The notes below the pieces were generated by a model. It made no database searches. It was given only the letters and a program-made list of their open reading frames with translations, and was not told the origin of the DNA. A DNA stretch of 64,000 nucleotides from positions 33,398,344 to 33,462,343 of the forward strand of contig JAHRHZ010000004.1 in NCBI GenBank assembly GCA_024137785.1, read 5' to 3'. Of this stretch, positions 9,196 through 56,124 are shown one piece after another; position 1 is the stretch's first letter, and the number at the start of each line of letters is the position of its first letter. Origin of the DNA: Ginglymostoma cirratum. Its lineage: Eukaryota. Both the position numbers and the translations under genes were made by a program.

Positions 9196-10707
9196 TGGGG
9201 TCAAATAATAAAAAGATGAATTCCATTGATTGTAACTCATCATTTGAATACTCTAGCTCTCCCATTATTGCATCCAGCTGTGTAATGTATGTTTCTGATT
9301 TGGTTTTACTGCTGTGCCTGGGGTGTTTGCTCAGAGGTTTTTACACTGTGTGAAATGAAAATGTACTTTGCAGCTGTCCTGCACCGAGGAGATAATTTGA
9401 ACCACTGAACAGAACTCGACTTGTTTGCACTATTAACCCTTGGAGCAGACTCATTTTGTTCTTGATCCTTTGTTGTCGGTTTAATCCTTGCCACAGCTGG
9501 CATCTCCAATTTGTTGATTTAGGTGAAGCTAAATCATCTAGAAAATGGGCTGTGTCTTGAAGACCTCACTTATTATGCAGCAGGTAACGGGAAAATGTTC
9601 AGGCAGTTTCCATTAGACCATGTAAACTGATCATATCCATTGAATTGCTTAAGCTCACTGCATATTATTCACTTTGAAGTAATTTCCATTCAAATTGGAT
9701 GGCCAGCTCCACTGTCGGTGGCATAGTGGTAATATCATTGAACTGGTAATCCTGTGGCCCAGGCTAATGCTGGGGAACAAGTTCACATCCCCTCATGGCA
9801 GTGGGTGGAATTCAAATTCAGTTAAATAAACCTGGAATTGGAAACTAAACATAATTTTATCATTGCTTATCACAAAAACTAGGGGTCTCTACATGTTCCT
9901 TAATGGAGGAAAATCTGCCGTCCCTACCAGGTTTTCTTTGCACATGACTCAGCAATGGAGCTGTCATTTACTGCCATCCAAAATGGCCCAGCAAGTCACT
10001 CAGTTCAATGTTGAATGTTGGGAAACCTTGAGGCCCCCGTTCTGTCAATGTTAGGATGGTACTTCCTTTTCATTCCGGGTCATGAGTGCATAATTTGTGC
10101 TGCTTGACCTGGTTTGCCACCTTTTAAGTGTTGCACTTCCTGACAAAGAGCTCAGTTTGCTTTCCAGCTTACGACATCTACAGTAAAGTTCAGGGTGAGA
10201 ATTTGCTTCTGGACTGGGAGTTGTTTTCCTTTTTGAGGATTGTACTGAGATGAGGTGCAGGTGAATACAGACTTTGGTGCAAGGATAATAATTGACCTTC
10301 ATGTACAGACTAGACTTGGGACCTTTGCTTTAATCACTGCCTAATCTAGCTCTTCTGCTACGCTTCTGCTGCTGACTAACCTGTGCACTAATGTGGGGGT
10401 ACCATGTTGGCTATTTGTTGGTCAGGGCTTGCAAACCTTGCAGTGTGTTGCATAAAGCCTTTCCACACTGATACACAAGTACTGAACATACATGAGAAAA
10501 TCTACTAGGCTGAAATAAGCCTATTGTTGTGAGCAATAGAGCCTTCAGCACACAGTCTTTGTGCTTCAGTAAAATAGTCCAAAACAAAAAGTCTAAAGTG
10601 AAACCAATCTAAACTAACCAACTAGCTGTCAATCTGAGGCCAAATGATCGTATTCAATGTAAATATTTCTTTAAAGAAGGAAAAGGTGTTTTTGTTTGCT
10701 GACCAAG

Positions 10708-31090: not shown

Positions 31091-31231
31091 CCTAATGTGC
31101 AAGGCCGGACCTGTGACACTTGCAAAGCTGGTTACTTCTACCTGAGTGCAGAGAACAGAGAGGGCTGCCTGCCCTGTTTCTGTATGGGTGTGACACAGCA
31201 ATGCAGCAGCTCCACATACTACCGGAATGTG
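31091..31231 (+). CDS. HSPG2: Perlecan exon (PNVQGRTCDTCKAGYFYLSAENREGCLPCFCMGVTQQCSSSTYYRNV)
   Basis: tatag| ... |gtacgt, phase 0/0; GCLPCFCMGxTQQC motif. Confidence 0.95.
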
Positions 31232-31552
31232 GTACGTTTTACATTAACTTTTCAGTCTTTGCTAACATGTGTATGTGGTAGTAACTTGAATCATTGTCGA
31301 GGGGAACTCCCTGGGAATGCCAGCCTTTCAAGATACCCACATCGTGTGCAACTTAAATTCATTAAGACCTTGTGAGCAGTTCTTAGGCTCTCCTCATTGA
31401 CACTGTCTCCCTCAAGGAGCATATAATTGGTTTGTAAAGGATGCAACCTAATATCATTTTGTATATAAGGATCTTACTTCGTTTTATAATGCCCTTGTGA
31501 AGCAGCTTTGGACTTGTAATTGTGTTAAAGGTGCTAAATATCAAGAATTGAG

Positions 31553-32876: not shown

Positions 32877-32877
<1 letters not shown>

Positions 32878-32910
<33 letters not shown>
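32878..32910. repeat. Poly-G homopolymer (about 32 nt)
   Basis: Directly visible. Confidence 0.9.
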
Positions 32911-33133: not shown

Positions 33134-33328
33134 GTTTCAAGTCCATTTGTTCCACCAAACGACTTTCAGAACTTCTCCCTGGTGAATCGTCAGCGCACCA
33201 CACGCATCACCTCGGGATTTACAGTGACAGTGAGAGACAGGCAGCCACAGCTGTCGTTTGGACGGTTTGGGCAGTACACACAGGAATCCTACTACTGGCA
33301 GCTTCCAGAGGTGTTTCAGGGTGACAAG
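33134..33328 (+). CDS. HSPG2: Perlecan exon, start of laminin IV (L4) domain 3 (VSSPFVPPNDFQNFSLVNRQR...ESYYWQLPEVFQGDK)
   Basis: ctgtag| ... AAG|gtacag, phase 0/0; YWQLPExxQGDK motif. Confidence 0.95.
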
Positions 33329-35070
33329 GTACAGCTCCAGACTCTCCATCTAAATACTTTGGACCTCGAACTTCATAAGTTTAAGAATACTCTGAGGTGA
33401 ACCAAGCAGGGCTTGGTGATATGTGAGATGATCAAAATTGTTGAACAAATGTTTAAGGTTTACATATTTGGGATTACATTTTATGCTATTAGTCTACCAC
33501 AATCATTTTTTGAGTATTTATAGTTCGCAGACTTTGGTGTTTGTTAATTCTGTCACGTAACATTCTTCAATGATATCAAACACACTGAGCAGCAAATGGT
33601 GTGACTATGGCAGAGCAAGGACCTAGTGTGAAGTTATGGAGGAGGTCCTATCACCATGAACATTTTGGGGGCTCATGAACGTCCTGATGTTCTGCCCTCT
33701 ACCTGACTGGCAGGTCAGGGGGTGGGAGGAGTCACTAATCAGAGGAGTCTGGAGACAGGGTTTCTTTGCACTGCCCTGTCAATTGGTCAAGGTATTTGTC
33801 AGTAGTTGGCTCAGAGGCTATTGATCAGGCTGATGAGCCCATTGGTTTCGTTGAGCAGCCAAGCTGAGCACTCCAGCTTGGTATGCTGGAAAAGGCACTT
33901 AACATGTCACCTTTCACATCCCAATCACTGCCAAGTCTCCTGATTCTGGGGAAACTGGTCTAGCGGGAGCTCATTGCCGCATTAGGCAAACCCCAGCTAA
34001 TTAAGTTCATTACATTATTCACAATATCCGTGCTGTGAAAATTGTTATTTGTTCGTCTCATGATCCCACATTTCAGTTTTAACTTCCCCACAATGGGTGG
34101 GTATTTCTGCTAATGTTGAGGCTAATGTTACAGCGTTAACATTGGGATGCTATTTTTGCATGTTGGTATGAACTTAATGACCACTATATGCGTCTGATGA
34201 GTTTTTAGTCTTTATTACATGTTACAGCGTGGACTGTAGAGATGGATAACACTGTTCAATTTCATTTAAATTCTATAGTTTAGTGTAACCATGGATTAGA
34301 AAGTCTATGCATGTGTTCTAACACATTTTTAGTGCAATGTGCAATTCTCTCAGTTTCATTATGTTCACGGCACTGTTGTGGATTAACCATTCCTCCAGAA
34401 ATTCTGACATAAGAGTGCATGCTAAGATGTAGACTTGTATTCTCAGATGTAGCTTTTGAAAGCTAAAAAAGCTTTGATCTATTTTCAATTTTGAAAAATG
34501 TCAAATTCCAAAGGATAAAGATTAAATTCTCCCTTTCTCTCTGCAAAACTGATCTAACTCAGATGCCATTTAACAGATGTTGATATGCATGGAGCTGACG
34601 GAGACTGAAGATTAATCGGGGACTATATCAAATGTAGAATGAACATTAATCAAGTTTTACACATGTATGTGGAAAGTGTGATATTGTCTTTCAAAGCAGA
34701 GAAATTGGTGATTGTAGACTGACTGCCGAGACTGGTACCAAAGACCTGTGGCAGATGTGTTTTGAGCCAAGGTCATAAATCACTTGGATAAAATTAGAAA
34801 GGGCCAACTCACCCTGGTTAAAAAAAAAACAAACTCCCCCAGAGAAGCAATGCAAAATTATATGGTGTCATTGCCTGAACACACAGATCTTACAGTCAAA
34901 TTCCATTACCTCTTCAACTGTGAACTATATTTCCTATAGTTCATTTCTACTTTATGCAGCCAAGATAGCTACTGCGCTTGGGTCTGCTGTTTCAGACTCT
35001 TCCTGTCTAACATACTGTTCACTGCTCAGTACTGGATTGTCTCTGACCATTATTTATTCCCTTTCTTCAG

Positions 35071-35109
35071 AGGGAGCAGTTCTTTGCTCGTATTAGACGA
35101 GGACACAAG
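35071..35109 (+). CDS. HSPG2: Candidate cassette micro-exon c1 (REQFFARIRRGHK)
   Basis: ctgac branch site, strong pyrimidine tract, cag|; AAG|gtagtg; 39 nt, phase 0/0. Confidence 0.6.
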
Positions 35110-36519
35110 GTAGTGTTTGCATTCAGCCTGTTGTGGCTCTCTCTCTGGGTTGGAGCACTGTGTTCGTCTGCTTTGGCTTGGCTTTGAATTGTTGGCTTGC
35201 AGCAGTAATAATATGCCTTGTTTTTTGCCAGTTGAAACTGTATTTTGGGATTAGATGGTGGGGTGATATCTAAGTCCTGGGATGAAGTTGTCTTTGCTGG
35301 GTTTAGATGGCTGGGTAATGAAAATAGGATTCATGTCGTTCCAGCTGACTTACCAAACATTCCAAAAGCAGTAAGACAGGGGCCACATTGTCTGCTTCTC
35401 CTCTCACCTCTGAGTGGCTCTCAACAGAAGACAGGAAAGATGGAAAAATGCCACTGTCTTTAAAAGGAAAAGCACCCTGCAACAAGTGCATATTTCCTCC
35501 AAAGAGAAAGTTCAGAATTTCACAATCAGGGTAGTAACTAAACAAGAGCTGAGAAATATAGTTAGATGTCTGTTGTCAAGACTGAAAAGAAGAGTGTGTG
35601 AAGATTTAATGTAGAATCTCCCTCTGATATCCTCCAGCCATTGATGAATCTGGAACCATCACCAGGTAAACTCCTTGGCACTTCAGCCTTATCTGTTTAA
35701 TTTGCATTCAACTCCGGTGTTGTGACTTTGAAATAACAATTTATAAAATCCTTAACATAAACACAAAAACCTGCGTGTGCTGGACTTCTGAAACAAGAAT
35801 GAAGTGCTGGAGAGAAGCAGCTGGTTTGGCTGCATCTGTAGAGAGAAAACAGTAATATTTCGAGTGTAGTCACCCGTCATCAGGACTGACAATAGCTGGG
35901 AAAGGGTGGCACTTATGCTAATGACTGGGTGGAGGGTCTGAGTAGAGTGCAAAGTGCTTTCTCCATGTACTCTGTTCACTCCCCTGACTCCCACCCAGTG
36001 CCCTGGTGAGCTGCCACCTTGAACTGTTGCAGTGGTTGCAGCGTAGTTCTTCCACAATGATGTTAGGGAGTGAGCCCCAGGACTTTGATCCAGCAACACT
36101 GAAGGAATGCAATACGATTCCAAATCAGGATAGTATGTGGCTTCAACGGGAACTTGAAGATGTTCCCATGTATCTGCCCTGGTCCTTCTGGATGATAGTG
36201 GTTGTGGATTTGGAAAGTGCTATTGAGGGAGGCTTGGAGCGACATTACAGCTTGAAGAATTTTCCCAGAATATCAGAAGCTTAGGTTTAAATATTGACAT
36301 GGATATGACCATACTAATCTTTGTCTTGAAAGTCAAATTCAAACAGGGATGTGTTACCTCCAGTGTGCTATTGAAGAGTCAGCCCACAATTCTCAGAAGA
36401 ATGCATTGTGCACAGTTTCAAAATCTGATTTTCATCCTTTTCCCGGCAAACCTTTTACATTCAGGAACAGGATCCTGGTCTCGTGGCTGATATTTATTCA
36501 TCCACTATCATCATCAAAT

Positions 36520-37110
36520 AGCAACATTTATATAGCACTTTTAGTATAGAACATCTCAGTAATTATGACCAGGCAAAATCTGACAGCCAGCCAGTGATGA
36601 GTGATCAAAAACATGGTTAATGAGGAAAGATTTAAGAAATATCTTGAAGAAGTGAGTTGTTGGGATTTACGGAGAGAATTCCAGACTTCTGTTGGCCTGG
36701 GCCACTGGCAGATGCAAAAGAAATGGAAAATGCTCAATATGTCAGAGATATGGGAATGCTGAGATCTTGGTTGGTCTCAAGACTGATGAAAGGTCTAGTG
36801 AAAAGGAAGAGTGAGGATTAAGCACAAGGATTAGAACTTTAAATTTGAGGCACTATGAGGACAGAAGGCATTGCACTAATTGAACTATAAGGCAAATGGT
36901 TGACTTGGACTTGGTGCGAGTTAGAAGATGGGAAACTGAGCTCACGTGTCTGAAGTGGAAAATGGGAATGTGTCTGGAAGGGATTGGAATTGTCAAGCCG
37001 GAGGATAATAAAGACAGGAATGAGAGTTTTAACAGCAGGTGAGCTGAGAAAGAGGTGAAGGCATTGTTTTTGGAGAGATTGAATTACTGAGCTGTCAAAT
37101 TCAGCCAAAG
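36520..37110 (-). mobile_element. Degenerate L2-type LINE 3' fragment
   Basis: Minus-strand remnant FLSSPAVKTLIPVFIILRLDNSN, resembling the L2 RT C-terminus; related piece at about 53050-53400. Confidence 0.6.
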
Positions 37111-38785
37111 GTCAAGACTCATACTATAACCAGGGAACAGGGATAAAATGCATGGCTGGAGAACACAGATTGTCCCATGGGCCATTACAGTTGTTGTAGT
37201 CTTTCAGGTATTTAATTTAGTTTGTGCTCATGTAGTACTGCATGCATCGTAACAGCATGACAAATCATAGACTGTGGGAATTGAGTGTGGCGTGGTGCAG
37301 TTCTGCTGATGACAATCTAGTCATTATATTATTGCTGTTTGTGAGAGTTTTCTGTGCGCTCATTGGCTGTCACATTCCCTTCATTACAACAGTGGCTACA
37401 ATTCATTGGATATGAAGCATCTTGAAGCATCCTAAGGCCATGACAAGTGATAAATAAATGAAAATTTTTCTTCAATTTTCCCACAACTTCACCATCCAAG
37501 TCTTTTCTATTGGTAGGGATCTTAAGAGAGGGGATGTTTTTCAAGTGATTCTGGAAAACTTGAGCATTTCTTTCTCCATCTCTGTTCATTTTTTGCGTTG
37601 CCTCAGGCATTTCAAATTCTCCCCTCTAGAATCATTTCCTAATAAAAATTTGAAAATGGCTGTTTTGTTTCTAAGTTGCTGTCTTCCCTTCCCCTTTCCC
37701 ATTCTTAAAAGTCTTAAAAGAACGATATTAACCATTCACTGCAAAGATAACATATATTTGCAGAACATGAAGTCTTTACATTCTAAATTTACAACATGAA
37801 TGGGCTTCACGATGTTTACCAGCATCTCTTACGTTTTGTTTCATTTCATAACTGGCTTAACATGAGATTAATGCCAGCATAGCCAAGCTTGAGCCAAAGA
37901 TGGAACTCCGAAAGGTTGTGGACGCTGGATTAATTGAAACTTTCAGAACTGTAATAGATTTGTTTTTTATTGATGTAAAGGCATTAGGCAATTTGGAGAA
38001 AAGCATGTTCAATGGCTTGAGGTTCGAATCAGCCATAAGAGGCTGAATGGCTTCCACTTGTTGCTAAGTACAGCTTGAAGCCCCTGAACTGTGATTTTGG
38101 TTACTATTCCAGTCGAAGCTTGGAAGATTAATTTGAAGTCAAAGTCAGAGTAAGCTGATTCTTCTTCAGTTATTAAATATAAATTGGCAGGCAGCATGGC
38201 CAAGGGGCCTGAGGTGCTGGAGGATTAAGGCTCTAGCCTTTCTGGAAAAAAAAAGGTCTTGTGGTACAGTGATAGTATCCCTATCTCTGAGCCAGGAGGC
38301 CTGGGTTCAAGTCCCACCTACTCCAGAAATGTGTAATAACCTGTCTGTACAGGTTGATTAATATAAATTGGCATCTGTTGTGCAGCTGGGATAGTTTCTG
38401 TGTTTTGTGCAGATAATGATAATCCCTGTTTGGCTTTGCTGTTGTCAATCATCAGAAAATTCTATTAACTATTCTTGCACCTGCAGATCCTGAAATTGAA
38501 AAAGCATAAAAGCAATTTTCTGGTTCTTTATTAAGTTTCAGCAAGCTTTCAAACTGTTTGGTGGACCATGTTTCACATTCAATCAACTTTGACTGGAAAT
38601 GATTTGGTCTACTTACCTTAGCTGAACTCAACAAAATAGCCAGACCATTTTCAAAACTGTCAGAATTTGTGTCCGCCATAGTTATTTTGTTTTTGTTTGC
38701 ATTGATGCTGGGTCGAGTGGAGCTGTGTGCTCAGCAGTAGGAAGAATTTGTAATCCTAAATAACATGCAAAATTGCATTAATCAG

Positions 38786-38887
38786 AAAGACCCATCTTTG
38801 ACTGAGGACCAGCTGAGGAAAGATGCAGCCATCTGGGAACTCTTGAGCACCTCTTCATCGTTTCCTAGGGTTAAGCGATCCTCAAAG
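38786..38887 (+). CDS. HSPG2: Candidate cassette exon c2 (KDPSLTEDQLRKDAAIWELLSTSSSFPRVKRSSK)
   Basis: atcag| (weak pyrimidine tract) ... AAG|gtagca; 102 nt, phase 0/0; peptide similar to c3; TGCATG at 38901. Confidence 0.6.
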
Positions 38888-39354
38888 GTAGCAGTGAAGC
38901 TGCATGACACAGTGTGGAGCATGAATTTTACCATGACTGTTGCAAGCTATATGTAGAGTAGATTTGAACTTGTTCACTCAATTAGTCTAATACACAGGTT
39001 TATCTCAGTTTATGTAATTTGCATTTTCATAACTCATTTATTCCCCCACCCACCTTGAAAGAGTATGGTAAAAGTAATAAGTCAAAGCACAACCAATTGT
39101 TTACCTTGTATTTAATTACTTTGCATGTGTACTGTACTGTAAAGCATGGGAATTATTTAGCTAAATTGTTACTGGCCCAAATCAATTTTATATTTAATTT
39201 TAAAGGTCCATGCATCAATGACGCAAGTGGGATTCAACTCCCATACATAATACATAAGTACCTATATCATTTTTGCATGGAGCAAAGTGGTTTCAATTCC
39301 AGTATCAATCGTTCAAGAAACCTCCCAAAGAGTTTAAGTAGTCAGGTGTTGTGA

Positions 39355-39795
39355 AAGCAAACAGTACAGAAGGAGACCATTCCATCCATTGTACCTGTAT
39401 CAGTTCTGTGAACAAGTAGCCTCTTAGTCCCACTCCCATTATTTCTCCTGCAACTCTGTGGATTTTTCTTTTCCAAAGTGAATATCGAACTTGCTTTTGA
39501 AAATTATCAATGAACATACTCTAACACAGCATATTCCAGATCCTTATAACTCAGTATTTGGAAAGAAAAATTCTCCCCCTGTCTGTAATGGTTTTCCTGT
39601 CATCATTCAAACCTGAATCCCATGGTTGCAGCCTCTTCTGTCAGTGGGAATGGTTTCACCCGATTTGCTCTGTGCAACCTCCTCATAATTTTGGCCACTC
39701 TGTAAATTCTCCGTGGGACCTCCCTTGCTCTAAGGCTGATAATCCCAGTCTCTCCACGTGAAGTGCGCTCCCCCACTTCTGGTACCATTCTGGTG
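39355..39795 (-). mobile_element. Degenerate CR1-type LINE 3' fragment
   Basis: Minus-strand remnant TRMVPEV...IYRVAKIMRRLHRANRVKPFPL. Confidence 0.6.
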
Positions 39796-40392
39796 ACTGG
39801 TTGTGTTGTTTGTGAATGGTAATGATCTGCAGTGATAATGGTGAAGACACTACAGGCGTCCTTCAAACAAAGGGTGAGCTGGGTCAAAATAGAGCCATGG
39901 TATTGCATCAGTCTGTCAAGATTGGATCTCAGAGTGATGCAGGGAAGGGGTGCATTAGCACGCCAGTAGCCCCCAGTGATGGTTTCTCCAGAGATAGTAG
40001 GAACTGCGGATGCTGGAGAATCTGAGATATTTCTCCAGCATGATTTAGTCTTTGTTTGGATAATATTTTGATCTTAATACTATGATTTAATTCTTGGAGT
40101 AAGTTGAACATTTAACAGCAGATTGAAATCCTTCTAAGGACAGCAATGAATATTGGGTATTTCTGTGGGCTGCAGAGAGTTAGATAAATGCATGAAGCAG
40201 TTCAAAACAGGAAAAAAAAATATAGAACTGTTTTGAAAACAAAATGCACAGTTAATCATCCTTGTCTGTGCTGCGATTTTATGTGCATTTATTGTTCATT
40301 GAGTGGTGAGCTTACTTTGCAAGTAATTGCATTCAAGTTTTTATTTAATGTAAACACTATTATAGACAACTTGTTCCTTCACTCCTTTGTAG

Positions 40393-40695
40393 TCTGTGCC
40401 TGATATGGAAGAGCAGAAGCGTATAGATGATGAAATATGGGCAATTATATCTGGCTTTACTGCTGAGCAGTCGCACAAACCACGTGTTCGTGGCCCACCG
40501 GGTGGCAGCGATCTGTCCAATGCTTCCCGTCCATTATCTCGACTGGCCTCAGCAAGGCCTGCTGGGCCACCTGCTCCCTCTTCCTCCCGCAATCCATCAT
40601 CTCATTCCATACGCTCACCTTCCTCTTCAAGACCCGCTATTTCCCGTTCTTCTCGTCCCTCATCTCTACTTTCTCGTCCTGGCGACCACAAAAAG
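40393..40695 (+). CDS. HSPG2: Candidate cassette exon c3, 101 aa Ser/Arg/Pro-rich (SVPDMEEQKRIDDEIWAIISG...SRPGDHKK)
   Basis: ttgttccttcactcctttgtag| strong acceptor; AAG|gtatgg donor; 303 nt, phase 0/0, stop-free, GC/CpG richer than its flanks. Confidence 0.75.
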
Positions 40696-42631
40696 GTATG
40701 GAAATCTCACAGCAATGGGAATAAGATCATTCGCTTAAGTCCTTGAGTTTCTTTTTAGGTTTAGGGTTCACAAAAGGTCAACACAGCATTTTCCATCTGG
40801 TTAAATGCCCAGAAGCGTGCATTGAGTGATGTCTGTTTGACTGGAGAATAGTAAACTTGTCTATTTGCAAGCTATTTTCAAGTACAGCATAGAATGTTCC
40901 ATTGACAACTTGTCCTAGTAGCTGAATAGTTGATGCCGGCAATAGTCCTGCGTGCCTGGAGGTTCATTGGTTTTGAAGTGGCCTAGTGGCAAAATAGTGG
41001 TGGTAGGTTATGTAGGGCCCCCCCTCCTCCCCCCAATGGTTGCATGTACCGTTGTGTCTATTCCTCAGCCTCTAGGTCACAAGGAAATGGATTTAAGGCA
41101 CTTCCTCTGGAAACAAAATGGGAAGGTGGTCAACTGGAATAAAGATTGATGGAAACACCCAGCAAGTCAGGCAGCATTTGTGGAGGAACAGAGTTAACAT
41201 TACAGATTGGTGGCCATTCGATGGATAGGGATAGGGATCAGTTTGTAAACTAATGTTGAGCCTCAGTGGCAGGGTGGTGGGGCGGGGGAGCAGAGGGTAA
41301 CGGTGAAGGAAGGAACAAAGTGCGAGGTCCACAATAGGCGGGTGAGAAGAATTGATATAAGGATGATGATGCAAGGCATATAAGGGTTTGGTAATGGGAC
41401 ATCCAAAGAAATATAAGATGGATGTAGAGAAGCTAGTGCCAATAATGGAATTATCAGTGGCTTATTCCTCTTGGGTCTTACAGTAGAGGTTTTATTCATA
41501 TTAATATTGCAGTTAGTTACGCAGAACATACATTGAGGAGTTTTGATCAAGTTAAGTGGGACACACTGTTTTCATTAAGATGCTAGTCAGTATCATGATT
41601 GCTAGGCAGTGTGGAAGGATAGACAAAAGAAACAAAGCACCAGAGAGAGATGGGAATTTATGCCAGGAGTTTTCGTGATTGGCAATGTGCTGTCTGATTG
41701 AATCTGGTTTCTAAGATCATGTACGAAAAGGAATTCGGGAATAATATAGGATTTTGGAGAAAGAACAAGAAAGTGGGACTGTAATCAGATAGCAAGCAGG
41801 GCCAAAAACTGGCTTTGCCAATAGTTGGCAGTGATTTGCTCAGCTAGTACATGTTCTCAGCCTCTAGTGTTCTGCAGCTTCAACTGAGACTTTGTGCACA
41901 ACAGAGGAGAGGAAAGTTGCATGACTTGCCCGTGCCATGATGTTCCTTAGCTGACTGCCTCCTGTTGGGCTGCTGAGATCCAAGACTTGTGTAAACCAGC
42001 TGAATGAATCAGGGAAGGCTGTTTTCCACCTAGGGACTGCAGTCACGTCAGAGATATTTTCATCCCTTTCCTTGGAGATGGATTTGATACATAGAAGGAA
42101 AGTTGGTATAAACACTCGGGTAGAAAACCACCAGCATGTGCAGTCTGAACAGATTATGTAATCGGGATTCTGCAAGAGCTCAAAGATGAGAAAATTTGAA
42201 TTGAATTTTCTAGTCATCAGCTTTGGGTGTGAGAAGCGTTATTGAGTGAAGCATGATGCAGGACAGGAAGCCTCTGGGCTTAACTGCTTTGCCTTTTTAT
42301 TATCTGCTGTCATCTTCAAGAGCAACATCTGGTTGGGAAGGAGGAAGTGGGTGTGCAGTTTTCTCATCCTCCTGGAAAACGTACACTGGTTTGGAGAGTT
42401 AGGTTTCCGTTAGAATTTCTTTGTATGATCACTTGGCAAGGCGACCTACTGGAAGGGCTAATGTAAACATTCTCCTACCTGAGGCAGGGAAGGGGAGAAA
42501 GATGGGAGTTCAAAGAAAATGTTAGTGTTATTCTTCATTTGTATGTGTGAAATTGAATTTGTTTCTAACTGAACCAGTTCCATTATGAATCAATTAAATT
42601 GAGTGTTGAATTTCTCTGCGTGCACCAACAG

Positions 42632-42730
42632 ATGAGAAACATTCCTCAGACCCCTTCACTGCAAACTCAGGAATCGTCAAACCTAATTTCTTCACCCATG
42701 TCGGGCCTAAGGTCTGGAGGTTTTGAGAAG
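42632..42730 (+). CDS. HSPG2: Candidate cassette exon c4 (MRNIPQTPSLQTQESSNLISSPMSGLRSGGFEK)
   Basis: ctaac branch-like site upstream, caacag| ... AAG|gtagcc; 99 nt, phase 0/0; TGCATG at 42749. Confidence 0.5.
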
Positions 42731-45063
42731 GTAGCCACAGTTAGCTCATGCATGGAATGTTCTGGCATCCTTGTGACCGCATGCACGTCTAAGGTGTGAA
42801 TGTTTTCAGAAAGCAGCCTGTGGGACCACAAATTCAAGGCCGTTGGGAGGAGAAAAGTCAGCCCAAGGAGCAGCTCAGAATGCCAGAGTTTGTGGATGTT
42901 GTTGGTATTCACCATGCAAATTGGCTCAAGGTGGATTTAAAAAAGCAACAAAATGACAGCATATTTGTGTTCAAAGTAAAATTATGTAGAAAATAGTTGA
43001 AACACTGCCAAGTTTATGCTATCCTGCATGATTTTTAACATGGTCATGAACCTCCGCTGGCTATTGCCATCTTTATTTAACGTCTGTTGAGTGTTAATTG
43101 GAACTAGCATGTGCACAGCTTTGATGTAATTGGTTCAAAGTTGTATGTGTGGACAAGAGCTCTCCTGATATCCAGTGGTGTTTGTGAATTATTATACGTG
43201 GAACCATTGAGTTGAGGCAGTGTCTTTTGAGAGTGGCCTCACGTGTCCCTTACACATAAACAAACAAAGAATTTGTTAAATGTTCTGAGATGGAAGGTTT
43301 CTCTGCTGGTAGCTATCTCTCCCTGAATTGCCATCAGAGATACTTTACCATCAGCTTTTAGGCATTTTTGCCATAATGTGTCAAGCATCTTCAAGTTTCC
43401 TGTTAAAAACAGTTTGATGTCTGGCATCACACTTTCTGTTAGTTGCCACATCAACATTGGATGAAAGAAAGGTTAGTAGGTGTAACTGGAAACCAGCTTT
43501 AGTTTAGCATGTCAAAGCATATTTACATTTCATTGGTTCCCTGCGGTGTTTTCAGAAAGTTTTCTTTTCAGCAAGGAAGTGAAACAGAGCCAAGAAACTA
43601 AACAGGATTTCCCTAACTCTCTTTTGAAAAATAAAACTTCATAAAAACAAATTAACTTCCCATTCAGAAGCCTCTCAAGACTTGCAATAGCCACTCCTGT
43701 CATCACAGCTCACGTTCCAAAGGAACTCTCCATGAGTGGAGCTCTGTTGGATACCAGCCAAACCCAAAAAGAAATGATGTTGACCCAGAACATTTACCAG
43801 ATTTATGTCGGGTTTCTGCAAAAGGAAAATCCCAGTTAAGGTTCCAGTCTCTAATGCCAAAACTGATGGGGAACTCTGTTATAATTCATCTTTAATAGTT
43901 CTTGTAGATTGACCATACCTTTTGATTTCCAAGAACCTCAGTAAGTGCAGGAATACTCTCTCTTGTTAATTTTTACCGTACCTTCAAACAACAAGTGGCT
44001 TGGATTTCAGAAGACAGGGAAATTGCATGTTGATTGAAAGTTTTCTCAAATGGAAAAATTGAAGAAATAAGGTAATTTTTTTTAGGTTTCTTTTATCTTT
44101 TGACCTCCCCACTGCCACACAATAGGCTCGTGGGCCCTGTATTCCCAGAGAGAGAGAGAGAAAATGAAAAGCTAATAACACTTGGAAATGGACATACTTG
44201 TCATACAGGAGCTGCATTCTGAAGTATACCAGTCAGACCAATATGTGTCATTTGTCAATTCTGTTGGATCTGCCTTCTGGGAATTTTTATAAGTTGTCTT
44301 GTATTGCTTAAAGCCATCAGTTGAATTAGCCCTCATGCTGGAAGAATGAAACCTTCCTGTGCAGATTCAGATGGCCCACCATCTCCTGGAAGAACAAGCA
44401 GAAGACAATTTTCCAAGACTCTCAAGTGAAAATTTTGTAAACTTGTGCCTGGCTAACATTCCAGTACTCCCACTCTGGGATTTTCTCCATTTTGGACATG
44501 GCAACCCTCTGCTTCTGTAGGTGGGGAGGGCTTTGCATGTTGGCCACGTAGAAACCCTATGGCTCTGTTTGTGAACTTTGGAGTGACCTTGAGCTTGTTG
44601 CCAGGTTATAGTGCAAGTCCGATGCTCAGCTGACCCAAGTAGCAAATAAATCCTGTAATTAAAACAAAAAGTGCTGGCAATAATTAGCTAATCAAGCAGA
44701 GGTGGGTGAAACAATTAGCATTTCAGGGTGATGACCTTTCAGCAAAAGTGCATGTCCTGCCATTGAGTTAACTTCTGATGTGTTCATTTTGCTCATTCGT
44801 GTGGGTTTTTCCTGAAAATACTATAAATCTGATGTGCTGTAAAAATTTGGTTGCTTCAGAAAGACTCAGAATTTTCAAATAATTCCATAAAAGTGCCTTG
44901 TCAAAACAAATCTCTCTGCATTTTGTCAGTGAGGAATGGTTGGTCTCTGCTCCCTGAAACAAGCCTGGAGAAGGAATTCCAGTGCATGTCCTTGAATGTG
45001 TTTGCCTGCGGCTCTGTATCTACTTTCTCTATTCATCTTGTGTCTGCCTCTTTCATATCCTAG

Positions 45064-45147
45064 CACTCTCTGCTTTACAAGGGCTTCAGCCTCCTTCCTG
45101 AAAGCAATTACTATTGGCGTCTACCTCACCAGTACCTGGGGAACAAG
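45064..45147 (+). CDS. HSPG2: Candidate cassette exon c5: duplicated L4 segment (HSLLYKGFSLLPESNYYWRLPHQYLGNK)
   Basis: tgcctctttcatatcctag| ... AAG|gtaacc; 84 nt, phase 0/0; paralogous to the end of exon 33134-33328. Confidence 0.85.
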
Positions 45148-45849
45148 GTAACCAGCATTTCCAGTAGTGGTTAGAATCTACAGTTTTGCACAGCTGTACT
45201 TTGGAAAATATTTCCAAATGGTAAGAGTTATATGTGCATTACTGATTTAACATGACAAAGTCTTTGTGTATGTTTTTCAAGAGAGATCCACTGGTGAGTC
45301 ATGATCGGTGGCTTGGCAGAGAAAATGTTTAAAGTCTCTGGATCTCGCTTCAGATTCTCTGTTACCAGTCAAAGTACTCTGAGTTCAGCTGTTGGATTCC
45401 TGCATTCAAAATTGATTGAATAACCAAGATTTCTAGATGTTGGTTTTGCAAAAGAGTATCGTTAATCACCAACAAGACAAGAATGAAGTGTTGACCAGAA
45501 AGTCTTCATTAAAAAGTACTGGTCCTCGTGTTGCCTGGTACAGAGGAGAGTGGCCAGCCAAGAAAACTGATGAAAGATGCTTTGTTGGTGATGGATGGAA
45601 CGGCACAGGAGCAATGAAGTCATTCCATTTTAGAAGGTTAAATGTGGGGAATCCAGTGAGATAATGACTCATTTTTTGAATAGAAAGCCTTTTCTTCTCC
45701 AGTGTATTGATATTTAATAAATCACATTAAGGTTTGTTACTTTCTTTATTGATGTTGAGAAAAATGTTGGTAGCTATTACTTAGATTAGAACACATTTTA
45801 ATAGGGAGCAGCTGTAAAACTGAGTAAGTCGACAAACTGTTCCTACTTG

Positions 45850-46150
45850 AGGGAGAGTCTGGGACTACAGTCATAATCTCAGGATTACGGATTGAGATGA
45901 GGAAGAATTTCTTCTCCAAGAGGATAATGAATCTGTGGAATTCTTTACCACAGAGGGCTGTCAAGGCTAGGTCATTAAATATATTCAAGGTGAAGTAGAC
46001 AAATTTTCATTCAGCAAGAGAATCAAGGATTATGCAGAAAAGGTAGCAAAGTAGAGTTGATGATTATCAGATCAGCCATAATCTAATTGAATGGTAGAGC
46101 AGACTCAATGGGCTGGATGGCCTTTTTCTGCTCATACATCTTCTGGCCTT
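45850..46150 (+). mobile_element. CR1-type LINE 3' fragment
   Basis: GAGATGAGGAAGAATTTCTTCTC...TTGAATGGTAGAGCAGACTCAATGGGC. Confidence 0.7.
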
Positions 46151-48749
46151 GTGGTCAGTGAAAAGCTTTCTGTCTCACCAGCCAGCTCAGAATCTATTAA
46201 CCGTGTGTGTGGTATTTTATCTTCCTCAACCAAAAGAGTTGGTTCAAAATTAACATTGCAACTCGTTGTCTGGCCAACTCTGAATGCCTAATTAATAGGG
46301 TTGTAATCAATATCAACTCACTCCATTGCTGATTTCCAAGACCCCTCTGCTTGAGAAAGGGGAGGGATTCCTTTCCTACAGAAGTGTGTTAGTTCAGTTT
46401 ATACTCATTATATCAGTTGAGGAAACTTGAGCGCACACTTAGTAGATCAAGTAGTTCTACTTAGTAGACTACATATTAGCAACAAGTCATAAGTATGGTA
46501 CGTACATGATCGTACAATGTAATTGACAGTTGTCTGAATCAGAACAGTGTAGCCAGATTAACTTGTCTTTATTTACCAATCAATGCATAAAGAAATGCTT
46601 AAAGAAATGAGTGGTTGCCCTCAAACAATAAATATTTCTGGCTAATCCCAGATTCTGCTAATATCTAACACAATTTGTAGAAATTTTAGTGGAAAGGTCT
46701 GATGTCTGTAATTATACTTGAGTGATGGGCCACATTTATGCAAATAGTCTTCAATTAGCAAGACTGCACCATAACTGATTTTTTGCTTGACTACATGTCA
46801 TTCCAATTATGCATGCCCGATTCCGGAAAACTTGGTTTTTAACTGACCCAAAGTGGTGCAGTGGAATAAAAACGCCCTGAAACTCAGTATTTCTGGGTAG
46901 GCTTCAGTTCATTCGGCTCATTTATGTCTTTGCCTGACTCAGTTAAGGCTGGATAAGTTTCTAAACACTGTGCTCAAGGCTGCTCCAGCATCCAAAGCAG
47001 CAGAGGAGCAATGTGACGATTCCCAATCTTGAACTTCCAAAATTGTACATGAGTTGGATGAAGATCCACAGGCTTTCACTTTCAGATGAGCAATCTTGCA
47101 TACAAGGCGAGAAACATTTTCATGTCACTTTTCGTGTTTTGTGTTAACTTTTTGCTTGTAATCTGTACTTGTTTGACATTCTGAGGACGTAAATCACAGC
47201 CTTATGTGGGTTTTTGTAGGAATATATTTCAAATAGCATGGTTTCAGTTAACACAGCTATTTGATTTTCAGGAATGTAACTATTACTTTAATCAAGGACA
47301 ACCTGTAAAGGAAATAATGGAAGAAAAGTAACAAATGTCGTCTTTTACTTTGTTCAGTAATGTCTAAAAGGATACAACAACCAGGGAAGACTGAGTCGGC
47401 TGGGGTTTACGGTCAGCAACAGACAAGACTTGGGCACTGCTACAGGCCTTTAAAATTGTAAAGGGTTACATAGGAACAGTAGTAGCACATTTAGCTTCTC
47501 AAGCTTGCTCTACCATTCAATTAGATTATGATTGTTGTGTATCTCAACTCCATTTAAGTGCTTAGCTTCATATTCCTCAATAAACTAAAATCAATAGATA
47601 GCAGTTTTTAAATTTTACATTGTTTTCTCTGCAGCCTCAAGAGTTTTTTGGGGAGGAAGCAAATTCCACATTTTTACTAGGGTGAAGAAGTGGTTTTTGA
47701 TGTCGACACCCTACCCCTCGTTTTCTCTGTTTTATCTGGGTAAATTACCAGTTGTCCGTCACAGATTGCTTGATGGGCTAGAATAACATGTTTCATCACA
47801 AGCCAGCCTTGGGTTTGTAGGTGGATATTTTGTTTCCTTATGGTCGATGTTCACAGTTGAAAGTAATTACCTTGCCCTAGGGACTAGTTGGGATATATGG
47901 TGGTGAAGCACTTTTATGAAAGCTAACAGCACAATCTGCACTGAGATATTTACATAAATTAGTCACTGTCTATTCATTTCACAGCTGTTTATGTTGTCAG
48001 CTCTGTCACAGTGGCACTATGATTATTTAACACTGACACAGCCAGTGGTTTCTGGTTCCAGCCTTGAGTGAAACCCAATAAACATGTCCCTGTCAATAAG
48101 CATTACTACGTGCTTTGAATATGGCTGTTTGCATTTAGCCACGTTGATGTGAGATGTCAGGACATCTTAATAAATGTCCCCTAATTAGCATCAGTCCATC
48201 ATTCTTCTAGTTCCTAGCCTCAGGCCAGAATGTGTCTGTTCTATAGTCTCTGTCCCAATGGCAGCAATTGCTAATTGATGGATGAAGTGAAACTCGCCCA
48301 GCTCCATTAACTGTGCCGTTCCTGCCTTGTTACATTTCACTTCACTCAGTGGCTCCATTCCATAGCCCTAGTGTTCTACTCCCTGCTTTACGTGATCCTG
48401 GCCCATCTCCTGGACTTCCACTGTGAGCAATACCACAAGAGGATCAATGCATTAATAATTGAGTCTTTAACTGAAGCACTGGAACATTGCGTCTTTTAAT
48501 AAGTATACACTATAATCTGTAAATTGATAACTTTGGCAATTTTCTAATTGTACAGTTTGTCAGCAACTTTGTAAAACTGATCATTATATTTCTGCAGATA
48601 CCAACTTTGCTGTATTATCTGACTTTGTTAAATCCAAGATGTGCTGGTGATATTGGTTCTCTATCTCTGCTCCTGGTTAAAATGTGGTGCTAATCCAAGT
48701 GTTGTATGTGTTTAAAGCATTCTTGTAATTTCTTTCTCATTTTGCACAG

Positions 48750-48842
48750 GTGACTTCCTACGGTGGACTCCTACGGTATACACTGTCCTACGATGCAGGG
48801 TACCGGGGTTCCTCAGTACCAGATGCTGATGTACAGATCATT
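48750..48842 (+). CDS. HSPG2: Perlecan exon, L4 domain (VTSYGGLLRYTLSYDAGYRGSSVPDADVQII)
   Basis: gcacag| ... |gtaagt, phase 0/0; YGGxLRYTLSY motif. Confidence 0.96.
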
Positions 48843-50493: not shown

Positions 50494-52762
50494 GTAAATT
50501 TTGAGAATTCTGCTTCATCATTCTTCCTCTTAAATATACAAGTTTATTTGTGCAATGGAGGCAAACGGCAGCTTAGGACTTAAAAATGAAACATCTGAGC
50601 CTACATTGGGTAGGGAGGAGTGTACTGTAATAGAAAGCAAAAGACTCAGCCACATCAATCCTGTCTCTTTCTGATGGATCAAGGCACCTATTAACCCTCC
50701 CGTTGTGTCTTTGCATCCTCAACTCTCTAGTTGACTCCCAATCCCATTGCTACTGCTGCTATTGGTGCCATTCCTGGCATGTTGCTCCACAGGGCTCAAA
50801 ATAAAACCCGTAAGTGCTGCAGAAACTCAGCAAGCCTGGCAGCATCTGTGGAGAGAGAACAGTATTAATATTTCGAGTATAATGACAGTTAATTCAGAAC
50901 AGACACCATAGGGCTGCTGATCCTGGGTTGAAGGATTTTGCCTGATTTCCATTGTACTCGCAACTTCTTAATTTTGGACTTGGAACCATGGGTGAAGGTC
51001 AATGACACAGTTAGCTAGCTGGCTAGAGTGTGGTGTAGAGTTATATTGAAGATACCATTCCAAGCCCTATACCAGCTCTATGCTTGACGTGGAGTAGTGT
51101 CCCTCAAGTTATATAACCACTTGTTTCTCTTTCTCACTTTTTTTTTCTCCCTCCCTCTCTCACACCCATCCTCCCTCTCTCGTTCGCGCCCACCTGCTCG
51201 CGCCCTCCCACTCATGCTCTAACAGAGAGAAGTGAGTATGGTACCCTCAAGGACTATGGCTAATTACCAATACCTTAAATATTTTAACCCTCTACCATGC
51301 CGAGCAAGGTTGTGGAGTATTTAATATCATAAATAAGTATAATATTTGCCCTTTCAAGATTTCAGGATTGTCTGATTTAAAGATATTATTGGTTAAGGGG
51401 AATTTAACAGCACCCCCTTTTCACTGGGGGGTAAATGCAAAATTTTTAGATGGCTAATCCACCACCTTCCTGCCCACCCTCCAAACTTTTCTCCATAATT
51501 CACTCGGCTGCCCACCCTTATACCTATTAAACATTTAACTACCTAATGAAGGGCTTGAATTCTCCTCCACTGCCACAAACTGTTTGGCAGGGGATGGGAA
51601 GGCTGATTTTCCACAAAAGTTGGTGGTAAGTTGTGAAGAAAGAGAGGTGCCTCGTGTGCATTGAGGCATCCCATCATAAGATTGCAACCCCACCTGTGTG
51701 TCTCCCTGCCAGGCTTTGAAAACACACACTGCCACCAATTCCAATAACCTCTCCCCAAAAACGTAAGGTGGAGGATTTTCACCCCCTACCCCATAATCTC
51801 CCAGAACCCTTGGCCGATTGTGTTATGTTAGAATGAGAAAATGTCCATAAATAACCTCTGTACATTTCAACAATCAGGACACTGCGTTAAACAAATGATG
51901 TATTTTTACTCATGATGAGTCTAGTAATGAAAATAGGGATCACTACAGTGAGTAGAGTATTTGAATGATATGCTTGTTGTTTAAGGAACATGCAGAAGAT
52001 TCTTGTTTATTCTGCAGGATCTTTTGTATGTATTTAAATGTATAAAGTCTCATTGGAAAGACCGCATTTCTAACAGGGCAGGACACCCTCATTACTGCTG
52101 CCTCCATGATGTACTGTGATGCTGAAAATGAAGCTTGAACTTTCTAATTGCGAAGTGAGTTATACAAGCCAATGTATGTGCCACTGAGAGACACTGACAT
52201 GTGGTTCATGTTTACCTCTGTACCAAAAAAGATTCATAGACCATGAAGAGGAATGATCCTCTGCTGATTCTTGTTTGAGTGCAAACTTGTGCCTTTCCTT
52301 CAAAGTTCTACATAGTCCAGTGGAGGAAAGACCAGAAGTATCTTTAAGACAAGCTAGATGAAATCTGGTTGCAACTTCTTGTGTGTTTTTGAATGTTAAA
52401 GGAGATTTTCAGTTTTTCAGTCAACCGACAAGATGTCGTGGGTATAATTTGTATTTGTCGCTCAATTTAATTCTAAAAAATAGCCCAATTATATTTATAC
52501 AGCATGCAAAAGACCCCTTGGTCCAACAATTAATGTAAGGGTTGTCCCACACCATTTCTTCTGAACCACTTAAAACAGCTGGTGCCGATTTTCAGATCAC
52601 CTTTTAATTTTGACTTCAGTTTGAAGTTTGGATTTAGATACTGAAAATGCTTGATGTGAGCTGGGTTTTAATTTTAGTTGACAGGTGGTGAGGGATTCTA
52701 GCACAAGACCATTCAGGAGTCAAAGTTGGCAAATTGTGAATCTGGTGCCTGTCTCTTTACAG

Positions 52763-52993
52763 CAATTTTGGAAGCGCCCAGATGGTCAGCAAGCTACCCG
52801 GGAGCATCTCCTGATGGTCCTTGCTGACTTGGACGAGGTCCTCATCCGAGCTACCTACTCGACCGACATGATCTCTGCCAGCCTCTCTGATGTGAGCATG
52901 GAGGTCGCAGTGCCATATTACACCAACTTGGCACAGGCTCTGCAAGTGGAAGAGTGTCGTTGTCCTCCAGCATACCATGGATTGTCCTGCCAG
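52763..52993 (+). CDS. HSPG2: Perlecan exon, end of L4 domain (QFWKRPDGQQATREHLLMVLADLDEVLIRATYS...EECRCPPAYHGLSCQ)
   Basis: ttacag| ... |gtgacc, phase 0/0; close to human FWRRPDGQPATREHLLMALADLDELLIRAT. Confidence 0.97.
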
Positions 52994-54337
52994 GTGACCA
53001 CATCAGTGTTTCTCTGATCTTCTCTCCAAATGCTACTTAATGCAAAGTCAATGACAATAAGCTTCCTTTGTAGTTTGCCTTAAACATATTGCTGCTGTGA
53101 AGCACTTTGAAGTTTTATCAGACATAACCTAAGACTGAAGGACGTGAGGTGTTAGAGAAGGTATGACCGAAAGCTTGGTCAAGGAGGAAGCTTTTAAAAT
53201 GTGTCGCAAAGGAAGAAAGTAGGTTGGAGAGGTTTAGGAAGAAATTTCAGAGCTTCAGCAGCTTAAGGCACAGAGACCAAGAGAGGAGCAATTAAACTCA
53301 GGCTTCTGCAAAAGTCTGGAATTAGAAGACTGCAGATATCTTGAGGATCAGGGGACATTACAAGGATAGAGGGTAGCAAAGAAAGGGATTTGAACAGGAG
53401 GGTCAGGTCCATACATTATTTTTCCTTAGTATTTTCCTTCCATTTTACCTATGTTGAGTTGCCTGTAATCAGGTAAAACAATGTACCATCCATTTTGTAA
53501 CTGAAGCAGTGGGCAATCTGGCCATCCACAGGAGTAAGTTATCTGGGTATCCCAAGTTTTAGGAAGTAGGATTCGGTCACAAAGATCAAAGCTGATGGTC
53601 CCATCCATACTCATCACTAGCATGCTGGCTACTCGGCAGGCAGAGGACGCTCTCACCTCTTCACTGTTCACTGTGACCAATCCTTGGCAATGAACATCCA
53701 CCAGTTATTCAGCCATGAAGTTTGTTGTAGCCAGACCTCACCCAGGCGGCATACACACCCCTGTACCTTCTAACAGGGGTTTTCCGTAGGCCCTTCTATT
53801 GTGAAGGCTGTGTTAATATGAATAAACGTGATACAATAACCAGGCCACTTGCAGGTATTGGTGTATGAGGCAACCTTTGACACCTTAAAATTCCTCCAGA
53901 ATTGGGGGTCAAGTTATATGCTGAGTATTAAAGTGATCCACTGGCGTCTGTGTGGGTTCACTACATGGGATCTGTTCTGTGTCACCATGCCTTAAACTAC
54001 CTTTGAAACATCACCTGTAGCTGCCGCTTCATCCTGTGCCTTCACGTAGAAGACACTGGGAAGTAAAACATTCATTTGTGGAACGACAAATTGAGACTGA
54101 CTGTTAATGTGAGCATTGTTTGAGAGCGGGACGGGTGATGGAATTGACTTATATCCTGAATACGTGCAGAAAACATGATTTTTGACGCTGAGAAAATAGG
54201 GTTGCCTTACACATTAGATTGCATCTTACAAGTCAACATATAGTATTTATTTTAAGCATAGTTCTTTCCCCCAAGTGTGAAGTAGCTTAAAGGCAAAAAA
54301 TGAAAATAAGTAAGAAAGGTAATAATGAATGAAGAGG

Positions 54338-56124
54338 GATAAAACGTTGTGGAGCTGGATGAACACAGCAGGCCGAGCAGCATCACAGGAGCAGGAAAGT
54401 TGACGTTTCGGGTCGAGACCCTTCTTCAGAAATGGGGGAGGGGAAGGGGATTCTGAAATAAATAGGGAGAGAGGGGGAGGTGGATAGAAGATGGATAAAG
54501 GAGAAGATAGGTTGAGAGGAGACAGACAGGTCAAAGAGGCGGGGTTAGAACCAGTGAAGCTGAATGTAGGTGGGGGATAGGTCAGTCCAGGGAGGACGGA
54601 CAGGTCAAGGAGGCGGGTTGAGGTTAGTATGTAGGAGATGGGGGTGGGGCTTGAGGTGGGAGGAATGGTTAGGGAGGTGGGGACCAGCTGGGCTGGTTTT
54701 GGGATGTCCTTGGGGGAGGGGAGATTTTGAAGCTTGTGAAGTCCACATTGATACCCTTGGGTTGCAGGGTTCCCGAGCAAAATATGAGTTGCTGTTCCTG
54801 CAGCTTTCGGGTGGCATCATTGTGGCAATGCAGGAGGCCCAGGATGGACATGTCGTCCGAGGAGTGGGGGGAGGGGGGAGGTATGCGAGTCGAAATGGTT
54901 CGCGACTGGGAGGTGTAGTTGTTTGTTGCGAACTGAGCGTAGTTGTTCCACAAAGCAGTCCCCAAGCCTCCGCTTGGTTTGCCTGATGTAGAGGAGGCCA
55001 CGACGGGTACAGCGGATGCAGTATACCACATTAGCAGATGTGCAGGTGGACATCTGTTTGATGTGGAAGGTCTTCTTGGGGCCTGGGATGGGGGTAAGAG
55101 GGGAGGTGTAGGGGCAGGTGTAGCATTTGCTTTGGTTGCAGGGAAAAGTGCAGGGGTGGTAGGGCTGGAGCGGAGTGTGGAGCGGACAAGGGAGTCAGAG
55201 AGAGTGGTCCCTCCGGAAAGCAGACAAGGGTGGGGAGGGAAAAATGTCTTTAGTAGTGGGGTCAGATTGCAGATGGCGGAAATGTCGGAGGATGATGTGT
55301 TGGATTCGGAGATTGGTGGGGTGGTACATGAGGACGAGAGGGCTTCTGTTTTGGTTATTATAGTGGGTAGGGGGTGTGGGGGATGAGCTGTGGGAAATGC
55401 GGGAGACATAGTCAAGGGCATTTTCGATCACTGTGGAGGGGAAGTTGTGATCCTTGAAAAACAAGGACACCTGGGATGTTCGGGAGTGGAATGCCTCATC
55501 TTGGGCGCAGATGCGGCGGAGGCGAAGGAATTGGGAATAGGGGATGGCCTTTTTACAGGAAGGTGGGTGGGAGGAGATGTATTCTAGGTAGTTGTGGGAT
55601 TCAGTAGGCTTAAAATGGATATCGGGTTCCAGGTGGAGGCCAGAGATGGAGACAGAGGGGTCCAGGAAGGAGAGAGAGGTATTAGAGATGGTCCAGGTGA
55701 ACTTAGAGTTGGGGTGGAAGGTGTTGGTGAGGTGGATGAACTGTTCGAGCTCCTCGTGGGAGCACGAGGCAGTGCCGAAACAGTCATCAATGTAACGGAG
55801 GAAGAGATGGGGGATAGGACCAGCGTAGTTCTGGAAGAGGGATTGTTCCACGTATCCTACAAAGAGGCAGGCATAGCTTGGGCCCATGCGGGTATCCATG
55901 GCCACCACCTTTGTCTGTAGGAAGTGGGAGGAATTGAAAGAGAAGTTGTTGAGTTCAGCTAAGCGGATGAGGGTGTCAGTGGAGGGGGACTGGTCGGGCC
56001 TGCGGGACAGGAAGAAGCGGAGGGCCTTTAGGTCATCAGCATGGGCGGGACAGGAAGAAGCAGAGGGCCTTTAGGTCATCAGCATGGGAATGGGACAGGA
56101 AGAAGCGGAGGGCCTTCAGCCATC
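54338..56124 (-). mobile_element. 5'-truncated Penelope-like retroelement (RT C-terminus, GIY-YIG endonuclease, terminal region), frameshifted
   Basis: ORF 55195-55908 has MGPSYACLF...RYIDD; ORF 54817-55053 has NVVYCIRC...LLYIRQTKRRLGDCFVEQ (GIY-YIG); 15-bp TSD TAATGAATGAAGAGG (54323-54337 and 56125-56139). Confidence 0.92.
54401..54430 (-). ncRNA. Minimal hammerhead ribozyme motif in the Penelope terminal repeat
   Basis: Minus strand reads CUGAAGA-A-GGG-UCUCGA-CCC-GAAAC-GUC-A. Confidence 0.65.

Follow-up and report, generated by a model that had tools for sequence, protein, structure and literature searches.

The stretch of DNA analysed here (the window, 64,000 nucleotides (nt) in length) is a 64-kb portion of the 4.36-Gb genome of the shark Ginglymostoma cirratum (GenBank assembly GCA_024137785.1, contig JAHRHZ010000004.1, positions 33,398,344 to 33,462,343) that lies within HSPG2, the gene for perlecan, which is a central protein of basement membranes. 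Mapped with tblastn, the perlecan exons of the window correspond to residues about 1224-1977 of Stegostoma perlecan, mostly at 80-100% identity, and encode the end of domain III-2, the complete domain III-3 and the first Ig module. The exon map, sequence motifs and Pfam together place an L4 domain between Cys3 and Cys4 of a split LE module, after which come LE repeats and the first Ig module of domain IV; the exon map, the Pfam Laminin_B family and the structures PDB 9I5A/9I5B identify it as the third L4 domain of perlecan (L4-3). The coding sequence of L4-3 is interrupted by a long intron, and within this intron lie five segments that are genuine, conserved, frame-keeping optional exons of the perlecan gene (Table 1).

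A preliminary description of this DNA had reported five AG/GT-bounded, stop-free segments of 39, 102, 303, 99 and 84 nt between ...QGDK and VTSYGG, and this proved exact. Each is preceded by CAG or TAG, ends in AAG|gta, has a length that is a multiple of three and contains no stop in frame 0; all are of phase 0, and together they amount to 627 nt or 209 residues. The insert that they encode possesses every element listed in that description, namely two R-X-[KR]-R sites, a duplicated helical motif (7 of 15 residues identical when aligned on Trp), an S/R/P-rich linker (29% Ser, 17% Pro and 14% Arg) and a new copy of the L4 YYWxLP..GxK segment; it contains no Cys. A role in glycosaminoglycan attachment was set aside, the three Ser-Gly pairs of the insert lying, by eye, outside an acidic context. 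Loosely defined AG..GT candidates are frequent, with 174 in the host intron, and homology was therefore tested with a profile, built from 43 inserts of species other than sharks. This profile matched exons 1 to 5 with E-values of 1e-4, 1e-9, 5e-13, 0.03 and 2e-15, respectively, the match of exon 4 being weak. The background consisted of five candidates from 108 kb of flanking DNA, and the sole match among these was a candidate to which a constitutive perlecan exon maps. No second copy of exon 5 was found elsewhere in the genome.

Table 1. Exons of the L4-3 region of perlecan and the intron that hosts the cassette (positions within the window).
Feature	Position	Strand	Description	Basis
Constitutive exon	31091..31234	+	Cys1-Cys3 of split LE module; Cys2 at about 31181-31183	Spliced to 33134 in RNA run X1 (loose end); Cys position hand-counted from translation
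Constitutive exon	33134..33328	+	N-terminal third of L4-3; ends with the original YYWQLP..GDK segment (...QGDK)	Translation, structure match, RNA run X1
Host intron	33329..48749	+	15.4 kb; 19 sense-strand TGCATG (RBFOX-type) elements	Motif count
Cassette exon 1	35071..35109	+	39 nt, 13 residues; convertase site 1 RIRR (35089-35100)	Strict motif in 45/48 species rows
Cassette exon 2	38786..38887	+	102 nt, 34 residues; convertase site 2 RVKR (38867-38878) following a predicted helix; TGCATG at +14; pyrimidine tract weak (0.45)	Strict site 2 in 35/48 rows
Cassette exon 3	40393..40695	+	303 nt, 101 residues; conserved D-x-E-I-W helix, then poorly conserved disordered S/P/R-rich linker	Sequence, AlphaFold
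Cassette exon 4	42632..42730	+	99 nt, 33 residues; Q-[ED]-S-x-N motif; TGCATG at +19; mammal models seen lack it	Sequence, models, profile
Cassette exon 5	45064..45147	+	84 nt, 28 residues; second copy of L4 YYWxLP..GxK segment, predicted occupant of the core slot	Sequence, tree, AlphaFold
Constitutive exon	48750..48842	+	Starts VTSYGG	Translation, Pfam, RNA run X1
Constitutive exon	52760..52993	+	Completes L4-3 and holds Cys4-Cys6 of split LE module; Cys4 at about 52955-52957	Exon map, Pfam; Cys hand-counted

The cassette is widely represented in the predicted perlecan proteins of other vertebrates. A query composed of exon 5 and eight intron-encoded residues returned 28 representatives, among them a frog RefSeq perlecan with a complete insert at the same GDK|V-x-SYGG junction. 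Searches with the region matched 29 of 332 candidates and, in a second search, 131 of 1,554, of which 120 were among the matches listed. Amongst 213 collected long proteins that retain the upstream anchor, 108 carry an insert, 100 have none and five lack the downstream anchor; the ratio of 108 to 100 is not a frequency, as insert-bearing queries were used and many isoforms are present per species. In all 108 models the insert is joined in frame to perlecan. The preliminary description had anticipated that automated models might already include these exons, and this is indeed the case: the RefSeq models of Stegostoma and Chiloscyllium (e.g. XP_072442898.1 of Chiloscyllium) contain a 209-residue insert made of the same five parts at the same junction, and 197 of the 209 residues of the window insert are identical to those of Stegostoma. 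Homologous inserts at this junction are found in Latimeria (coelacanth; XP_064423963.1), Polypterus (bichir), Polyodon (paddlefish), teleosts, 19 amphibians (including Dendropsophus, XP_069802948.1), turtles, squamates, ostrich, goat, cow (Bos, XP_070633298.1), dog (Canis, XP_038319266.1) and Kogia, so that comparison with predicted HSPG2 isoforms extends the observation from sharks to mammals, exon 4 being missing from the mammalian models seen. In nine non-vertebrate-like models the L4-3 junction is uninterrupted, and the searches with insert queries brought up no lamprey, hagfish, mouse or human model. Exon 3 alone found no match among proteins of 178-2000 residues or in the ESM Atlas, neither of which searches reached full-length perlecan.

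Mean column identity is 0.82 for exon 1 and 0.79 for exon 5, compared with 0.75-0.83 for the flanking constitutive exons; that of the linker is 0.32. Judged from these alignments, the cassette has been kept since the split between sharks and bony fish and is conserved, partly or wholly, from sharks to mammals. In the cheetah, the cassette is listed as a stand-alone 171-residue 'putative uncharacterized protein DDB_G0277255' (XP_053064618.1), which is apparently a mis-split of perlecan exons.

At the RNA level, one contig of run X1 (depth 9.09) joins 33328 to 48750 across a GT..AG intron, thereby skipping the cassette. Two further runs (X2 and X3) gave long unspliced contigs, about 95% alike, that read like DNA of a related organism, and run X4 did not cover the locus. 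X1 shows the skip junction alone; the segments are conserved according to both the profile and the gene models. Amongst the 15 isoforms modelled in Dendropsophus, ten include the insert and five do not. Insert-bearing models close with exon 5 in 106 of 108 cases, the exceptions being one insert of 34 residues and one of three. Partial combinations also occur, namely exon 5 alone (8 of 108 models), exons 1 and 5, and exons 1, 2 and 5, as assigned by a rough pattern matching of exons 1-4, and all-or-none splicing is on this account rejected as a general rule. The five exons had been described as one module; the whole block is present in sharks, but across vertebrates it is not a matter of five or none, and mammals lack both exon 4 and the strict site 2. 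In models of other species, exon 2 or exon 4 begins with one Gln more or less, as would arise from tandem acceptors (the window acceptors being 38786 and 42632).

The hexamer TGCATG is the binding element of RBFOX proteins, and a position close downstream is the rule for RBFOX-regulated exons. The 19 sense-strand copies in the 15.4-kb host intron, compared with 30 in 108.6 kb of flanking perlecan DNA, make TGCATG the first-ranked hexamer (p 2.8e-6 uncorrected, about 0.01 when corrected for 4,096 hexamers); its reverse complement occurs six times. Exons 2 and 4 have the weakest pyrimidine tracts of the five (0.45 and 0.6) and are the two followed closely by TGCATG, no copy being found within 300 nt downstream of exons 1, 3 and 5. 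Counts of NOVA-, MBNL- and QKI-type motifs gave no clear pattern in this locus. The arrangement points to RBFOX-type control as the likely regulator of cassette inclusion, and inclusion would therefore be likely in muscle or nerve.

Convertase motifs were counted in 48 hand-picked rows, one per species, with R-X-[KR]-R taken as the strict form. The inserts contain 80 strict motifs in 8,565 residues, compared with 13 in the 197,716 residues outside the insert in the same 48 proteins, and none occurs in the 4,264 residues of the linker, despite its Arg content of 8%. Site 1 and site 2 are strict in 45 and 35 rows, respectively, and one or other is strict in 46. The X position of site 2 varies (V, S, A, F, T or Y), and in teleosts site 1 reads RLKR, RMKR, RAKR or RPRR, the motif being kept whilst its surroundings have diverged. 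From this pattern the convertase motifs look selected. In 56 of 91 long inserts, exon 2 opens with an N-glycosylation motif, close behind site 1; the window shark lacks it.

The consequences for the L4-3 fold were explored with AlphaFold. A skip model (a Chiloscyllium-cluster sequence of 269 residues, 29-row alignment) has a predicted local distance difference test score (pLDDT) of 90.9, shows the original YYW as a strand and superposes on the perlecan crystal structure 9I5A over 263 residues (Z 34.1, root-mean-square deviation (rmsd) 1.5). In the insert model (Stegostoma, 483 residues, 39-row alignment), the L4 part has a pLDDT mostly of 70-90 and aligns with 9I5A over 177 residues (Z 24.1, rmsd 1.9) and with the L4b domain of laminin alpha2 over 172 of 185. 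The original strands are retained to residue 95, the original YYWQLP block forms no strand (pLDDT about 35) and the YYWRLP block of exon 5 is a strand (pLDDT about 83), the first half of exon 5 remaining below 50. Exons 1, 2 and the start of exon 3 are predicted helices (pLDDT about 60-68), whilst site 2 falls in a predicted disordered loop (pLDDT<50). The predicted L4-3 sandwich with insert thus keeps its original N-terminal strands and takes the YYWxLP strand and the next short helix from exon 5, and the rebuilt core that had been proposed earlier is borne out to the extent that these models place the exon-5 segment in the fold. Exon 5 is 39% identical to the segment that it replaces, and inclusion would therefore also change the surface of L4-3. 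In a 28-column tree, the exon-5 copies form one group (92/93). The tree gives no preference for the adjacent L4-3 segment as the source of exon 5, which is equally alike to L4-3 (39%) and L4-2 (40%).

Cys2 and Cys4 of the split LE module flank the insert. According to PMC3544776, LE modules are bonded C1-C3 and C2-C4, with L4 inserted between C3 and C4, and the earlier statement that a Cys2-Cys4 bond spans L4 follows this published pattern. PMC6744579 describes L4 as peripheral to a continuous LE array, its insertion leaving the LE disulfide pattern intact, and as having no known function. The LE rod is continuous and L4 lies at its side, so that the likely outcome of a cut in the insert is a remodelled L4-3 and not a split perlecan; the C2-C4 pattern, the peripheral position of L4 and the Cys-free insert predict two tethered chains after cutting.

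As far as sequence comparison can indicate, perlecan likely alternates, through splicing, between a single chain and a form that is nicked yet still tethered. The reading that we favour, the balance tipping modestly towards it, is of a conserved RBFOX-type cassette that inserts its loop in L4-3, rebuilds the fold through exon 5 and is cut twice by a convertase, the purpose of the tethered, nicked perlecan being local remodelling. Inclusion, likely of RBFOX type and likely in muscle or nerve, would add a 209-residue loop to the third L4, for which exon 5 would supply the spare strand. Within the secretory pathway, a furin-type convertase would then cleave behind residues 10 and 44 of the insert, freeing a 34-residue peptide. 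The N-chain would comprise domains I to III-2 and the start of L4-3, and the C-chain the rest of III-3 together with domains IV and V; the Cys2-Cys4 bond of the LE module, together with strands that the two chains share, would keep perlecan in one piece. The new free N-terminus would carry the conserved D-x-E-I-W helix, which a flexible linker of about 110 residues would make into a binding arm, and the functional gain would likely be local, consisting of this arm and the altered L4-3 surface.

A number of observations weigh against this reading. X1, the sole RNA run that covers the locus, lists no inclusion junction, although a single run of this kind does not speak for absence. The gene models that carry the insert are themselves predictions; the cassette is skipped in 73 of 76 bird models other than ostrich (two lack the anchor and one has a three-residue artefact). 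RBFOX-type control and the muscle or nerve pattern were deduced from motifs examined in this genome alone. The 48 rows are related to each other (19 are amphibians), and shuffling the 209-residue window insert yields two motifs in 4% of cases, so that the convertase argument rests on conservation. Strict site 2 is absent in 13 of the 48 rows (all four teleosts, four reptiles, the ostrich and all four mammals), and the dog and Kogia models have no strict site at all; processing cannot therefore be the sole role of the cassette. Site 1 may be structural, for a predicted helix (117-128, pLDDT about 60-67) ends there and the residues that flank the site (F-A and A-H) are as conserved as its arginines. 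The insert model is also of low confidence overall (mean pLDDT 54.3, predicted template modelling score 0.44, with the five models ranging from 44.6 to 54.3), and its LE modules lack defined structure, which bears on the predicted disulfide. Where the preliminary description had regulated splicing convert perlecan into a processed two-chain form, the optional conserved exons, the selected-looking motifs and the predicted refolding stand in its favour and support it in part, and the dog and Kogia models count against processing as the sole role of the cassette, X1 showing the skipped form alone.

The helical setting of site 1 with its conserved flanks, and the retention of the cassette in dog and Kogia, are also what would be expected if the cassette were real and regulated but mostly uncleaved, adding binding helices and swapping the L4-3 surface, with the basic motifs forming a patch that is structural or binds heparan sulfate. 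The isoforms with exon 5 alone, which have no site, and the modest identity of exon 5 to the segment replaced accord with this alternative. We nevertheless regard it as unlikely, as the motifs, whose X residue is free, are restricted to two positions, do not occur in the Arg-rich linker and are nearly absent from the rest of perlecan, and site 2 lies in a loop predicted to be disordered. Distinctly less probable is an outright split, in which the heparan-sulfate-bearing N-terminal half would be released from domains IV-V in the style of ApoER2 exon 6B, possibly after disulfide reshuffling of the laminin gamma2 type. In its favour, one bond alone makes up the tether, ApoER2 sheds a fragment by way of furin sites that splicing adds (PMC7410921) and laminin gamma2 fragments are freed after a cut in a disulfide loop and reshuffling (PMC3544776); against this, L4 inserts keep the LE disulfide pattern intact (PMC6744579), the predicted L4-3 sandwich uses strands from both sides of the cut, and reshuffling would find no free Cys in the insert. 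Very improbable is the notion that the exons are vestigial or seldom spliced in, or that they constitute a small independent gene within the intron, for although X1 shows skipping only, most bird models lack the cassette and the cheetah model stands alone, exons 1 and 5 match the flanking constitutive exons in conservation, the insert is joined in frame to perlecan in 108 models with every exon in phase 0, and exon 5 makes sense only as part of L4.

A more ambitious form of the favoured, tethered-chain reading is that jawed vertebrates make a tissue-specific, convertase-activated perlecan, in which an RBFOX-driven, propeptide-like module brings a spare core strand and the cut exposes a helical arm that binds a basement-membrane partner in muscle or nerve. 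This proposal is tentative and, on balance, doubtful; if true, it would open a first way into the function of L4 and, should humans keep the exons, would point to coding exons that may escape standard screens for HSPG2 variants. The cassette in any case offers a direct test of the view that perlecan is a single chain and that its L4 domains have no known function, and it shows a route by which a long loop can enter a folded domain, namely by duplicating the strand that it interrupts. Its significance is limited in that the exons are already in automated models, the protein-level picture is predicted and the mammalian sites are eroded.

Other features of the window lie outside the coding sequence of L4-3. 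A run of about 33 G occurs at 32877-32909, just 5' of the exon that begins at 33134, and high-copy repeat fragments, with read depth in thousands or more, are present in the host intron at 38255-38325, 39989-40029 and 45928-46094. The first of these has a weak tRNA-like score in Rfam, is probably the head of a short interspersed element, and was the only element found in the Rfam scan; direct and inverted repeats were looked for and none was informative. The intron after exon 52760-52993 contains a retroelement on the reverse strand (54250-56070) with broken reverse-transcriptase-like frames, a likeness judged by eye. The 23-kb perlecan intron at 4062-27093 harbours a single-copy open frame of 644 codons on the forward strand (10703-12634), with 21% Ser and Thr, 18% Lys and Arg, 13 N-glycosylation motifs and a coiled-coil-like stretch. 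It has no match in Pfam or the Atlas, is absent from the collected perlecan models and was negative in all four exact sequence look-ups made with it. Weak, phase-compatible AAG acceptors lie at its very start, at 10708 and 10726, and the frame could be an alternative last exon that truncates perlecan or the last exon of a nested gene.

The closest known counterparts are the predicted isoforms of perlecan itself, in domain III-3 (L4, Pfam PF00052), which share the gene, the junction and the exons and, in two shark genera, the 209-residue insert; these RefSeq entries differ from the present account in being unannotated predictions. Section 4 of PMC6266596, which takes vertebrate perlecan to be a single-chain protein whose meaningful splice forms are few, names for vertebrates only miniperl and variants of domains I and V and mentions no domain III insert, motif or function. 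A literature search that covered few subscription journals and no supplements found no description of the insert, and splicing catalogues may list the exons; the cassette is already modelled but apparently uncharacterised. The extracellular protein ApoER2/LRP8 gains a furin site through human exon 6B (mouse 7B), a cassette exon of 13 residues (PMC7410921), and perlecan exon 1 likewise encodes 13 residues. The ApoER2 exon is a single one, located between modules, and leads to release of a soluble fragment, whereas the perlecan cassette has five exons inside a folded domain, two sites and a spare core segment, and its pieces are predicted to stay linked; homology is not claimed. Glypicans, according to PMC4859157, are heparan sulfate proteoglycans cut by a convertase into two disulfide-linked subunits, and the L4-LEb1 region of laminin gamma2 is cleaved within a disulfide loop at an L4 module (PMC3544776). 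In both, however, the sites are constitutive rather than splice-added, and gamma2 is cut by BMP-1/mTLD. Regulated splicing yields functional perlecan isoforms in C. elegans unc-52 (PMC6266596, section 4); the nine uninterrupted non-vertebrate-like models stand in contrast to the vertebrate cassette, the worm isoforms not being among them. Both a splice-added convertase site and a disulfide-linked, two-chain proteoglycan are kinds of arrangement that are already known.

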